Program-made: the position numbers and the translations under genes
Origin: Promethearchaeota archaeon
Lineage (GTDB): Archaea; Asgardarchaeota; Lokiarchaeia; Sigyniarchaeales; SOKP01
NCBI GenBank assembly: GCA_030603385.1
Contig: JAUVXW010000029.1
Coordinates: 1 to 61,300, forward strand
Length of the DNA stretch: 61,300 nt
Direction of reading: 5' to 3'
Notes under the pieces: generated by a model
Told to the model about the DNA's origin: nothing
The model's input: the letters and a program-made list of their open reading frames with translations, nothing else
Databases searched by the model: none
Shown here: one piece after another, positions 22,060 through 33,104 of the stretch
Layout of the letters: every line of letters starts with the position of its first letter
Position numbering within the stretch: the stretch's first letter is position 1

Positions 22060-25000
22060 TTATTTCTTATCTGAATCTGCTATTAATTTATCTAATTCTT
22101 CTTTATGTTCCAATGATTTCTTAATTAATTGATCTTGTTCAAGCTTTTTCTCTATTGGTTCCGAAGGTTTAATTTTCGTTGACATCTCTTCCCCCTTGTG
22201 AATTATAGGTTTTCCTTTGTAGTAATCAGAAGTTTTAACCATCTCTCTTCTGTAGGCACCCTTAAAAGCCAATTCACGATTTAAAATAGGAAAGCCAGGA
22301 ATTTTCTTTTTTCTTAGTGTTTTTTTATATTTTCTAACTTTTCTTACAGGTTTTGGATATTTTAATATTCGTTGATACAATAATATATAAGTAGCTAAGA
22401 TTGCCGCTCCAATAAAACTGAGAATAAAGAATATTTGAAATAAAAGAGTTTGTTCTAAAGGAATGAATACTACATAAGATATCCACAAAAATGTATTATC
22501 AATTGACAGTTCTATCACATTACTTAACCCAAATTCATCAGCGAGAAAAATCTGAATGGTAATATTAATATCTTCATCGATTGGAACTAATTTGGTAACA
22601 TCAAATCCATCCTCTTTTATTGCATTAAAATAAGTCTCAGCATTGCTTAATTTGATAGTTTCATTATGTACTTGATTGTTAATCAAAATTTTGAATTCCG
22701 AATTAGGTGATAAGCTCGTTGGCCAGGTCTGATCGATTTTAAAATCAAAATAAAGCTCAGCATTTGTAACTTTAACTCTGCGCCCACCAGCTTCAATTTT
22801 TTCCCCTGCATAATTCCATGATACGGAGGTGAATTGATTAATTCTTTTTTCATAAGAGATTGAAAGAGTGAAGTTTTTTATAAGTAAACTATTCCAATAA
22901 TCTCGATCACCTGGATGACCACTATCTTCACACCAAATATATACACCTAATGTAATAGTAAAATTTTGATAATCATATTGGAGAGCTTGCTCAAGGTAGA
23001 AGATTAATGTTTCTTCATTAATAGGTGTAATAAGTGTGTTACTTAATTCAGTTATTTGGGTTGGACCATCCTTACCCAAATCATCTGTTTGATAAGAGGT
23101 GCTTTCAAATTCCCTATTTCTTTCTACATCTGATATTAATATAAAAAATCGTGCAAAATCACCAGTTGCGATTTGAAGTTCATTAATTGGGTTGCTAACT
23201 AGAGTATCCCCTGGTCGATCAATCCCCCCATTATCCATCGATACTGCTTGAGCTGAACCATTTATCCATGCTTCAAGTGAAGCTGATGTAATGTAATAAT
23301 CAGACATATTAACATTCATTGTAAAATTTTTTCGCCACTGCACTCTAAGAGATTGAGCTTCATTATCATCCCATGTATGAGCTGTAAACCAACCATCTGC
23401 ATTTATTTCATAACTATCCATTAAAGGCAAATTATCATCGTTATCAACCTGAACCCATCCATTACTATTACCATTTTCAAAAAACTGTTGGGAACCTGAA
23501 CCTCCTAATATTTTATAATTAGCAGTACCATTACTTATAATAGGTTCAATATCTGAAACATCTCCCTGAAGACTTGAGGTCCAATTTTCATTAGTATTAA
23601 ATTCATAATTTTTGATCCATTGTTCTCTGTGGGATTCTCTAGTCCATAAACTAGTCGAATCCTGTTGAGCTAAATTAATATCAAAAGCCTTATTTTCTCT
23701 TATTGAAGCGCTCATATTCACAGTTATTATTATTGGAATAAAAGTTATACCCAACAAAATAAATATTAAAAATATCAAATTTTTTTTCTTTAAAGGGCTT
23801 TTTTGCTTTTTAACACTTATTTTTTTCCCTACTGCTTTAGGGCGAGGAGTTCCTATGAAACTGGAAGTTCTACTTAACTCCTTTTTGTATTTTTTCTTAA
23901 ATCCATTTTCACGTTTAACAATATGTATGTCAGGAGGATGAGGTTTATTTAGTGTACGTCTATACTTTTTTATATGTCTAACTGCTTTTGGAAATCTTAA
24001 CACTTTTCGATAATATATATAGTATCCTCCTAATAATCCTGATGCTATTATTGCCCCAATTAATAGAAATTGAAAAAGAAAATCACTCTGAGTTTGGAAA
24101 TATATATTGTATGAAATCCATAATATAACGTTATCTATTGAAACTGTATAATTCTCACTTAATTTAAATTCATCAGCAAGTAAAAGTTGGATTGAAATAT
24201 TAATATTATCACTACTAGGAATTAAATTAGTAACCTCAAATCCTTCTTCCTTTGCATTTTTAAAATCTAATTCTGCTAAACTTAATTTAATAGTCTCTAA
24301 ATGATCTTGTTCATTTATTACTAATTTTATTTCAGAATTGGGTGATAAATCAGTTAACCAAAGTTTATCGATCTTATAATCAAAATATAATTTTGCATCC
24401 GTGATTTCGACAATTCCGCCTTCAGAGTCAATTTGATTTCCAAGATATTTCCATGAAATGGAAGTTAATTGATCTATCTTTTTAATGTAATTTATTGTAA
24501 AATTGCACGATTTAATATAGGCTTCAGTAAACTCGTCAAGATCCGTAGCGCAATTATCTTCACAATTATATTCAATCCCTAATATAATAAAGAAATTTTG
24601 AAAATCTCCATTCTCTAAAACTTGATTTAGATAAAAAATTAGATCATCCATATCATCGACTTGAAAAATTGTATCATTTAAGTAATTATAACTATTTGGG
24701 ATTTGAGCGCCATCTTGACCTAAAGTAGTGGGTTGATATTCTGACACTTTATAGTTTACTTCCTTATTTAAAGTTGAAAGTCTCACGTAAAACTTAATAT
24801 AGTCACCTTCAATGAATCGAGTCATATCGGAATCACCAGATACTTCAACACCTTCCCAATGCCAAACATCTCCACCCCCGCATCCCACATAAGCTTTTGC
24901 TGTAGCATTAACTAAAACCTTAAGTGAAGCTGAGGTAATGAAATAATCAGACATATTGTGAGGAGTTGATATTACTTTTTCCCATTGAACGCTTGTTTTT

Positions 25001-25497
25001 TGATAGGCATTCGTAGTCGTTCCACTATGTTCAGCCCAATAATGGGATGCAAAACATCCCGATTCGTTTATTTTATGTCCATTGGTTGGATATACAGGTA
25101 TCTCTGGATTCGTATTATTGTACCAACTAGGTGAATTTGTCGAATTAGGTGTACCAGAGATTAATGTAATTGAATGTTCTTCCCCTATAGTTATTAAATT
25201 CCCTGACCCTCCGTTAATATAAGCATCAACATCTCTAGCATCTCCATTTACTTCAGTTATCCATCCTGTATTATTACTAAAATCTGAATTTTCAATCCAT
25301 TGGTTATTAAAAGCTTTTCTTGATAATTCATTAGCTGAAATACTAAAATTTTCTTGTTTTTTAATATCCGAATAATTAGTATTATTTTCAGATGGATTTG
25401 GGATATAAGAAATCGAAAATAACACGATTAAGAAAAGGAAAATTAATAATATTTTTGTTATCTTATTATTTTTGGATCTCATAGCTAAACAAATCAC
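22060..25497 (-). CDS. Uncharacterised surface protein made of two tandem units (signal/TM - ~420 aa ectodomain - TM - basic cytoplasmic tail)
   Basis: Internal duplication of QWI.N..F, NMSDY.ITSASL, LIFYL.Q.L, KKIDQLTSISW/KRINQFTSVSW, LSPNSE, ETIKLS, LADEF, (L/I)(R/K)(F/Y)PK.VR. Confidence 0.8.
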   Translation of the reverse strand: MICLAMRSKNNKITKILLIFLFLIVLFSISYIPNPSENNTNYSDIKKQENFSISANELSRKAFNNQWIENSDFSNNTGWITEVNGDARDVDAYINGGSGNLITIGEEHSITLISGTPNSTNSPSWYNNTNPEIPVYPTNGHKINESGCFASHYWAEHSGTTTNAYQKTSVQWEKVISTPHNMSDYFITSASLKVLVNATAKAYVGCGGGDVWHWEGVEVSGDSDMTRFIEGDYIKFYVRLSTLNKEVNYKVSEYQPTTLGQDGAQIPNSYNYLNDTIFQVDDMDDLIFYLNQVLENGDFQNFFIILGIEYNCEDNCATDLDEFTEAYIKSCNFTINYIKKIDQLTSISWKYLGNQIDSEGGIVEITDAKLYFDYKIDKLWLTDLSPNSEIKLVINEQDHLETIKLSLAELDFKNAKEEGFEVTNLIPSSDNINISIQLLLADEFKLSENYTVSIDNVILWISYNIYFQTQSDFLFQFLLIGAIIASGLLGGYYIYYRKVLRFPKAVRHIKKYRRTLNKPHPPDIHIVKRENGFKKKYKKELSRTSSFIGTPRPKAVGKKISVKKQKSPLKKKNLIFLIFILLGITFIPIIITVNMSASIRENKAFDINLAQQDSTSLWTRESHREQWIKNYEFNTNENWTSSLQGDVSDIEPIISNGTANYKILGGSGSQQFFENGNSNGWVQVDNDDNLPLMDSYEINADGWFTAHTWDDNEAQSLRVQWRKNFTMNVNMSDYYITSASLEAWINGSAQAVSMDNGGIDRPGDTLVSNPINELQIATGDFARFFILISDVERNREFESTSYQTDDLGKDGPTQITELSNTLITPINEETLIFYLEQALQYDYQNFTITLGVYIWCEDSGHPGDRDYWNSLLIKNFTLSISYEKRINQFTSVSWNYAGEKIEAGGRRVKVTNAELYFDFKIDQTWPTSLSPNSEFKILINNQVHNETIKLSNAETYFNAIKEDGFDVTKLVPIDEDINITIQIFLADEFGLSNVIELSIDNTFLWISYVVFIPLEQTLLFQIFFILSFIGAAILATYILLYQRILKYPKPVRKVRKYKKTLRKKKIPGFPILNRELAFKGAYRREMVKTSDYYKGKPIIHKGEEMSTKIKPSEPIEKKLEQDQLIKKSLEHKEELDKLIADSDKK

Positions 25498-25606
25498 CCA
25501 ATTAGGAGTTTAATATGTGTAATTCTATATTCTTAATTAAATAAGTTACTTAAGATGTTATTATTTATAATATCTAAGGTGATGACAATTAAATTGAGTA
25601 ACATAT

Positions 25607-32356: not shown

Positions 32357-32460
32357 AATTGGATAATTATTGGTTTTTTTATTAAAAACTTATAGTTAAG
32401 GTAATATACCAAATTATTTAATAAATAATTTGCCACTTGTTCCAAAATATATTTGGAATA

Positions 32461-33104
32461 TGATATTAATACGTAGAATGTTGCTGAGTCTCCTACTCCA
32501 AATTGAAGAGGTGTATCTCCAGGATCACCGGGGCAATCTATTCCTCCTCCATCGTGAGGAGAAACTGTTACTGTTGCATTAAATATCGCTGTCAGAGAGG
32601 CAGAGGTAATAACATAATCTGACATATTGACAGGCATTGTTATATTTTGTTTCCAATGAATACTCGGAGAGTTTCGTGTTTGATCAACACCCTCATCCCA
32701 TAAATGAGTAACATTTAAACCCGCTGAACTACTACCATTGGTATCAGGGGATATTGGAAATTCTGGGTTGTTGAAATCCTTCCAATCACCATTATTGAGA
32801 GGGTCATCTATTCTCTTTTCTCCGAAATCACCATAGACTATATAATTTCCATATCCTTGCCCTATAAATCCATCAACGTCAGATATATCTCCTGTTCAAT
32901 AGAGACCCAGGATGCTTCATAATCAAAATTTGTATTATTAAGCCATTGCTTTACCACTGAAGTATGGATATTTTGAGAAGATTTTTCCTGTTTTATAGGA
33001 GAAATCACATTATTATTTGAAATTAATATACCTAGAAATACAAGAGTAAAAGTGATTAAAACTATACTAAATTTTATCCTATTTGGAGTTCTTATTAGTT
33101 TAAT
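32461..33104 (-). pseudogene. 5' half of another family member, frameshifted and 3'-truncated (ORF 32353..32637 is part of it)
   Basis: My translation gives a signal-like RIKFSIVLITFTLVFLGILIS, then KQWLNNTNF, a one-base frameshift near 32893, GDISDVDG, NPEFP, PSIHWKQNITMPVNMSDYVITSAS; homology ends at FYVLIS; no in-frame ATG. Confidence 0.8.

Follow-up and report, generated by a model that had tools for sequence, protein, structure and literature searches.

A stretch of 61,300 nucleotides from a Promethearchaeota archaeon of the class Lokiarchaeia (contig JAUVXW010000029.1, positions 1 to 61,300, of assembly GCA_030603385.1; hereafter the window) contains two genes, A and C, each of which encodes two paralogous membrane-anchored units fused head to tail in one chain. 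The extracellular domain (ectodomain) of each unit is predicted to be a jelly roll (the outer domain) into which a second jelly roll (the inner domain) is inserted. Modelling pairs the ectodomains of gene A as a dimer, and sequence comparisons across the family reveal that inner domains have been exchanged between units. This signature is indicative of a recognition system that diversifies at the cell surface, and it is probable, taking the reading as a whole, that the family consists of paired receptors or adhesins, in which gene fusion fixes the dimer and the tip is an exchangeable cassette.

Lokiarchaeia are without a surface (S-) layer, and their unexplained surface densities are thought to mediate the contact with syntrophic partners that is central to models of eukaryote origin. 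The family described here is undescribed in the sequence libraries and literature searched, and offers a lineage-wide surface candidate whose fold is confidently modelled, whose dimer is predicted and whose diversification signature is limited to the tip domain. A member in the cultured Candidatus Lokiarchaeum ossiferum makes ligand, abundance and leader cleavage testable. The parts are of known kinds (jelly rolls, gene fusion and gene conversion); what is new is their combination in a dimer that has been fused repeatedly and whose subunits trade inserted tip domains. It is unusual for the two halves of a fused dimer to exchange an inserted domain reciprocally, and no description of this, nor anything relevant on cassette conversion in archaea, was found in the literature searched.

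Fused units in the window and across the family

Genes A and C are open reading frames (ORFs) of the organization summarized in Table 1. Hydrophobic helices were located at residues 13-31, 473-491, 575-593 and 1022-1040 of the gene A product and at residues 11-29, 767-785, 922-940 and 1683-1701 of that of gene C, and profile mapping gave the order leader, ectodomain, anchor and tail, followed by all four again, in both. The paired ectodomains within each gene are about 40% identical to one another (E values of 1e-70 to 1e-80), and residues 471-1019 of gene A align across the junction with residues 767-1371 of gene C. An earlier, sequence-only reading had proposed that both genes are head-to-tail fusions of two complete modules and had placed the internal leaders; the fusions, with four helices and two ectodomains each, and the leader positions are borne out. 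Each gene does hold two units, but these are unequal in size, since the units of gene C carry an additional stalk of about 310 amino acids (aa) composed of three Ig-like repeats.

Table 1. Positions of the features of the locus in the window
Feature	Position	Strand	Basis
Gene A (A type), fusion of two stalkless units, 1145 aa, with two ectodomains and four membrane helices	22060..25497	-	ORF, sequence comparison, profile mapping
Ectodomain A1, an outer jelly roll into which the inner one (~24490-25179) is inserted	24097..25323	-	Profile mapping, model
Unit A1 anchor helix and conserved basic cytoplasmic tail (YPxxVRKVRKYR type)	23863..24081	-	
Internal leader of A: basic stretch, hydrophobic helix (23719-23775), polar spacer, LAQQ site; disordered in model	23662..23790	-	
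Ectodomain A2, inner jelly roll ~22855-23499; modelled at pLDDT 93.7	22462..23643	-	
Unit A2 anchor helix, basic tail and terminal acidic/basic helix	22072..22434	-	
Remnant H, from the 3' part of a single-unit gene; begins precisely at the border of inner and outer domains (IDQFT)	25607..26527	-	
5'-truncated second copy of the neighbouring GNAT acetyltransferase gene	26527..26907	+	
Gene C (C type), fusion of two units that each have a stalk of three Ig-like repeats, 1813 aa	26915..32356	-	
Ectodomain C1, inner jelly roll ~31394-32050	31004..32200	-	
Unit C1 Ig-like stalk	30071..30994	-	Weak PKD match; Big_1/PKD on homologues
Internal leader of C (helix 29537-29593, ISAQE site), with its long cytoplasmic linker	29450..29830	-	
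Ectodomain C2, inner jelly roll ~28652-29299	28265..29449	-	
Unit C2 Ig-like stalk	27329..28255	-	Profile mapping
Remnant N, 5' part of a single-unit gene, frameshift near 32892, ending inside the inner domain	32461..33104	-	
Two conserved cytoplasmic neighbour genes (417 aa; 734 aa)	33261..36748	+	Beside members in nearly all loci examined

The linkers are free of stops, as a check against public sequencing runs, suggested by the earlier reading, confirmed. Run contigs bridge without gaps both the linker of A (X1, 22060-24911; X3, 21400-24621) and that of C (X1, 29210-29922; X3, 29530-29770), run X1 being possibly the source sample. No ATG, GTG or TTG is present in frame in the approximately 50 codons ahead of the internal helix of gene C, and several orthologues of the A-type fusion are likewise without a start codon ahead of theirs. 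An assembly or binning artefact is exceedingly improbable. The source genome is a metagenome-assembled genome (MAG) with 7% contamination, the locus is a mosaic with broken genes and the whole stretch is not covered by any single run contig, but the same fusions occur in dozens of independent assemblies, and run contigs cross both linkers. For the fusions this explanation is refuted; chimeric assembly could apply only to the arrangement of gene remnants found here.

Among 231 database proteins with a complete ectodomain, a set biased toward fusions by the choice of query, 153 have one unit, 78 have two and none has three. The description of the family as one built of tandem polyproteins was therefore overstated, although fusion itself is conserved. 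The A-type fusion is found near full length in about 55 database clusters (48-96% identity) and the C-type fusion in 11 further clusters, with more fused types among the 50% representatives. A-type orthologues are fused in all 10 genomes that have them, with in-frame changes in linker length, and gene C is 79% identical in nucleotides (nt) to its G008 counterpart. Single-unit genes, commoner than fusions, occur mostly as adjacent pairs at the equivalent locus, often in frame and 15-25 nt apart (G012, G030, G033, G004b and G006b), and the partner pairs of fused genes are also found as separate genes. In G026 the C orthologue is split, with a shortened linker, a double stop and a new ATG. The scaffold tree rejects the fused units as a single clade, which indicates that fusion or fission occurred several times, the number of events being blurred by recombination. 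Judging from these comparisons, units have become fused on several occasions, with at least one reversal.

Members were found in 57 of 251 genomes of the phylum, all of one class (Lokiarchaeia); none was detected in approximately 190 genomes of other families, nor was any relative found in viral contigs. The stalk varies from 0 to 7 repeats. A terminal helix of the ELIxKSLEKKEELD type (window positions 22072-22137, 25730-25810 and 26925-27010) closes the last unit of pairs and fusions, and was seen on no first unit in the loci examined. A fused member in another family (L059:8795-14506) has some 800 extra cytoplasmic residues, with helical repeats and a C-terminal β-rich domain.

Predicted fold, dimer and internal leaders

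The model of ectodomain A2 is a jelly roll resembling CBM4 and MAM domains with the second jelly roll inserted into it. Its β-sandwich superposes on CBM/MAM domains across most of the domain, a galactose-binding-like fold, at sequence identities of 8-16%. The earlier reading could assign the ectodomain to no known family, and this stands: neither the window proteins nor 98 members gave a match above the curated cut-offs of Pfam and NCBIfam, including CBM_4_9, MAM and the S-layer families, and among the window proteins the only sub-threshold match was to PKD, on the stalk. A sequence search of the PDB returned nothing usable for the ectodomain. For S-layer proteins of the SlaA, SlaB and Csg types there was no Pfam or PDB sequence match and none among the top structural matches, a result that bears on the listed families. 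The jelly-roll-in-jelly-roll arrangement had no whole-domain match in the PDB, BFVD or Atlas outside the family. Foldseek matches to the double-jelly-roll capsids of PRD1, PBCV-1 and STIV, to PNGase F and to BcsB were set aside as generic two-sandwich likeness (TM 0.12-0.25, root-mean-square deviation >17). The ectodomain is acidic and rich in sequons.

Docking of A1 with A2, performed with our own alignment, scored 0.79, against 0.00 for the best of three controls; 58 of 80 solved pairs reached the mark applied, as did 2 of 110 mismatched ones. The runs shared 85% or more of their contacts, with a partner pLDDT of 86. In the model the two chains lie side by side about a pseudo-two-fold axis and use 19 equivalent positions in common (2.4 expected by chance). 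Contacts are made outer to outer and inner to inner, which would be expected of a parallel dimer in one membrane. The outer interface patch is conserved family-wide (0.73 vs 0.51, p 0.006) and the inner patch, apart from an acidic CED motif, is not; this division was made after the data were seen, and conservation over the whole interface is not raised (p 0.25). Because A1 and A2 model as a dimer, fusion most likely serves to fix it. Each unit starts and ends in the cytoplasm, so two joined units would make an ordinary four-helix protein without any cleavage, and fusion of interacting neighbours would be the plain explanation of genes A and C. The proposal that they encode a stoichiometric two-ectodomain surface protein of an Asgard archaeon is thus upheld by the conserved fusion, the restriction to Lokiarchaeia and the modelled dimer.

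It is possible, though doubtful, that the fused genes instead encode a processed polyprotein, as the earlier reading also suggested. Signal peptidase or some other protease would then cut both leaders at a [LIP]-x-[ILTV]-[SA] site, about 25-35 residues outside the membrane, to give two mature subunits per chain. Each gene does combine more than one membrane protein in a single frame with a signal-like segment inside it, which is what such a precursor would look like. The site is present at the internal leaders of independent fusions (12/20, vs 5.3 in shuffled sequences) and at N-terminal leaders (55/113 vs 23), and in the model it sits in a disordered stretch ahead of the first strand. Exported proteins of this genome that are unrelated to the family carry a similar motif beyond their N-terminal helix (8 vs 1.4 and 19 vs 4.4 of 84 clusters), and the genome encodes one archaeal signal peptidase I (a TIGR02228 match; PF00717 found no peptidase). 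Canonical signal-peptidase cuts lie 3-7 residues from the helix. The small-residue site noted earlier does exist, but it lies some 20-35 residues past the helix, outside that distance, and AxA is not enriched. The leader patterns were, moreover, picked by eye on this genome after the fact, and out of sample, with three genomes pooled, one occurred 4 times against 1.1 expected and the other 2 times against 3.1. Association of the motif with a second anchor was not significant (p 0.07). Signal peptidase does cut a multi-pass protein in Staphylococcus aureus, LtaS (PMC12260438), whereas the leader of an MK-D1 surface protein remained uncleaved in HeLa cells (PMC11417166), a heterologous and weak comparison. 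The topology requires no cut, and an uncleaved internal leader is marginally the likelier state. Cleavage is compatible with both the dimer and the exchange described below; it would change the mature form and leave both intact.

In many unrelated exported proteins of the same genome (for example C53:50928, C48:26958, C50:23539 and C36:75129) the N-terminal helix is followed by a long polar spacer that ends in [LP]-K-[ILT]-S. This pattern, a possible processing or modification site, is enriched strongly in this genome and weakly in three others.

Exchange of inner domains between units

Trees of the outer and inner domains conflict. In nine C-type scaffolds the outer domains of the first unit form a clade (95/99), while their inner domains are rejected as a clade (p-AU 0.0005, with seven forced changes). 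At least four clear swaps of the inner domain between units 1 and 2 were identified, with scaffold, anchor and tail unmoved: G021 vs G026; gene C of the window vs G027; G024 vs G018/G025; and, among unfused pairs, G007/G017/G029 vs G003/G006/G009/G019/G036. The inner type of C1, for example, occupies unit 2 in G027, and that of C2 occupies unit 1. In such comparisons the difference between same-position and cross-position DNA identity changes sign at model positions ~36-58 and back at 256-276, coinciding with the structural domain borders; control pairs gave no sign change. Proteins P0094, P0059 and P0098 suggest further swaps. Matched inner pairs also change scaffold, a pair of the unfused type being found in the stalked fusions of G021 and L031. 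By these sequence comparisons the exchange, unlike the fold and the dimer, may be counted as shown.

The two inner domains differ (identity <=0.58) in 77 of the 78 fused proteins. P0076 (L137:6001-11487) carries an identical tract of 759 nt over both inner domains, its outer parts being 67% alike, and the inner domain in question is of the type of a different, single-unit paralogue. A near-identical assembly breaks at the start of the tract, as a real repeat would cause. P0076 is likely to be a gene-conversion intermediate, which would fit a short-lived homotypic stage.

The zones of crossover differ in place by about 20 codons, and DNA at the borders is not unusually conserved. On this evidence a site-specific switch is less likely than ordinary homologous recombination followed by selection. 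In the loci examined there was no sign of a recombinase gene, the genome itself not having been searched for one. A set of read-derived joints, with sides of 21-33 nt and mostly inside conserved motifs, was not used.

Some of these features would also be expected if the family were a neutral by-product, with tandem paralogues fusing, splitting and converting by ordinary recombination and the units acting independently. Unfused neighbours so close together and in frame make fusion mutationally easy, and variable crossovers, unremarkable borders and loci in which no recombinase gene was seen are in keeping with it. This explanation is nevertheless quite improbable: fusions have lasted across about 50% divergence with in-frame indels and never exceed two units, the units model as a dimer, nearly all fused proteins hold different inner domains, and the exchanges respect domain borders.

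The locus itself is a mosaic. Positions 20000-25720 and 32567-35052 resemble G019, and gene C together with the truncated GNAT copy resembles G008 (79-80%); that copy is a bystander that came in with gene C. Of the six ectodomain copies counted in the sequence-only reading, four are complete and the other two are partial remnants from different parent genes. Remnant N is the orthologue of an intact 557-aa gene of G019 (72% identical in aa), and related strains from two runs have an extra base at its frameshift site. For remnant H the best match is a G004 gene with one unit and 602 aa, to which it is 78% identical in nt over 953 bp. The idea that N and H are halves of two G019 genes fails for H, which is only 47% identical in aa to the G019 gene, and the sequence matches assign the remnants to different genes.

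The array is flanked (17558-21378) by a low-molecular-weight phosphatase-like ORF and by 3-hydroxyacyl-CoA dehydrogenase and enoyl-CoA hydratase genes, the latter two in synteny kept across the genus. Other exported or membrane proteins in the window (42-4193, 53934-54884 and 56727-57740) are an FtsX-like permease (by eye), a NosD-like repeat protein with the leader motif and a CBM96-like protein (by eye). A second array of the same genome (C53:54702-61825) holds two single-unit members and a 1227-aa protein with a different ectodomain and the stalk and tail of the family, on one strand with the two cytoplasmic genes.

Proposed mechanism, role and known systems

In the mechanism proposed here, each unit would have both termini in the cytoplasm and expose a single large loop, its parts being leader helix, ectodomain, optional Ig-like stalk, anchor and basic tail. 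The outer CBM4/MAM-like jelly roll would lie near the membrane and the inserted inner jelly roll at the tip. Two units would dimerize side by side, the outer domains via the family-conserved patch and the inner domains via variable, pair-specific surfaces. Loss of the stop or intergenic gap between adjacent partner genes would yield a four-helix chain and so fix a 1:1 assembly. The inner domain would serve as an exchangeable cassette, copied or swapped between units and scaffolds by homologous recombination in the conserved flanks. The route could be gene conversion, acquisition from relatives, or excision of a circle that later reinserts. The tip would thereby diversify on a constant scaffold, and the tail may couple to a cytoplasmic partner.

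Candidates for such partners are the products of the 417- and 734-aa neighbour genes, which accompany the family also in other families and at the paralogous locus of this genome (C53:61829-64924). The 734-aa protein has a long helical region and a conserved C-terminal domain, and its homologues have a TrmB-type helix-turn-helix; a longin-like identity for the 417-aa protein received no support from Pfam or the PDB. Elsewhere in the genome (C58:8179-10365 and C31:40902-45068), a cytoplasmic domain of about 250 aa, longin-like by eye, is common to two proteins and replaces the basic tail; these carry one family ectodomain and one unrelated ectodomain, in a receptor-like architecture.

The binding-type folds, variable tip and stalk, conserved basic tail and two constant cytoplasmic neighbours indicate that the family is most likely a polymorphic receptor or adhesin for glycans or for other cells, its ligand and signalling being inferred. 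The chief rival to this role is a structural coat, in which the dimer would be the building block of an irregular outer layer and variation would arise from virus escape. Lokiarchaeia have unordered globular surface densities and no S-layer lattice (PMC9834061; 10.1101/2025.07.22.663070), which would fit such a coat, and it would be in keeping with the acidic, sequon-rich ectodomain, a stalk of such variable length and the fragments of gene A in one metatranscriptome (X24; contigs only, which may not be RNA). A coat is unlikely, however, given that the highly conserved tail, members with long cytoplasmic domains (C58) and constant cytoplasmic neighbours fit coupling to the cell interior, and that the only highly glycosylated protein of P. 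syntrophicum is a solute-binding protein (PMC11284389). Rather improbable as well is a more elaborate form of the receptor reading, in which a paired recognition receptor is common to all Lokiarchaeia, its internal cassette is actively shuffled under selection (for virus escape or for partner or kin recognition) both from subunit to subunit and from lineage to lineage, the precursor is cut at an extended leader motif peculiar to Lokiarchaeia, and the tail is coupled to the cytoplasmic neighbours.

Several observations weigh against a fusion-fixed receptor or adhesin dimer. Three-unit gene arrays occur in G004, G008, G015 and L031, and the loci fetched from Ca. L. ossiferum have a single-unit member only, so that the heterodimer is not universal and homodimers must be allowed. 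The docking controls were unrelated proteins, and close cousins may pass, so the score does not measure pair specificity. The leader motif is kept at internal leaders, where a pure anchor would not obviously need it. The P0076 tract is known from one contig, and all genomes are assemblies, mostly MAGs. Finally, likeness to jelly rolls at such low sequence identity proves no function.

The family shares its galactose-binding-like jelly roll with CBM4/9, CBM16 and CBM61-type modules and with MAM domains (meprin, RPTP-mu), but differs from them in its 8-16% identity, in the lack of any Pfam match in 98 members and in the insertion of a whole second jelly roll. A further surface protein, 'Badge' of N. 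marumarumayae (LOKIASV2_13140), is a poor fit going by its description, in which both the protein and its β-sheets are very large. Viral glycoprotein precursors, such as bunyavirus Gn/Gc, repeat leader, ectodomain, anchor and tail twice in one frame; the family, by contrast, is chromosomal, with no relative in viral contigs and no whole-domain structural match in BFVD. Synteny between the fatty-acid genes and the two cytoplasmic genes likewise places it in the chromosome and not in a virus or provirus.

Subunits of one complex are encoded as a single chain also in Bradyrhizobium FbcH, a fusion of cytochromes b and c1 that is cut at an internal signal, and in Sulfolobus SoxM and Thermus CaaA, which are uncleaved subunit fusions. 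FbcH and LtaS demonstrate that internal cleavage by signal peptidase exists in prokaryotes. The family is unrelated to these four; its fused subunits are paralogues, and its fusion is recurrent and reversible. In Neisseria pilE/pilS and Borrelia vlsE, a variable central cassette is replaced between conserved flanks by gene conversion. In the family no silent cassettes or dedicated site are evident, donor and acceptor are both intact coding units, and the exchange seen is between species. Myxobacterial TraA is a polymorphic kin-recognition receptor of the cell surface; a conserved stalk bears its variable PA14-like domain, and its alleles are shuffled by transfer and recombination (PMC6372800). 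The comparison is one of working principle: TraA is the product of one gene, sits in the outer membrane and binds between cells through a terminal variable domain, whereas in the family the variable domain is an internal insert, traded between two paralogous units that are modelled as a dimer within one membrane.

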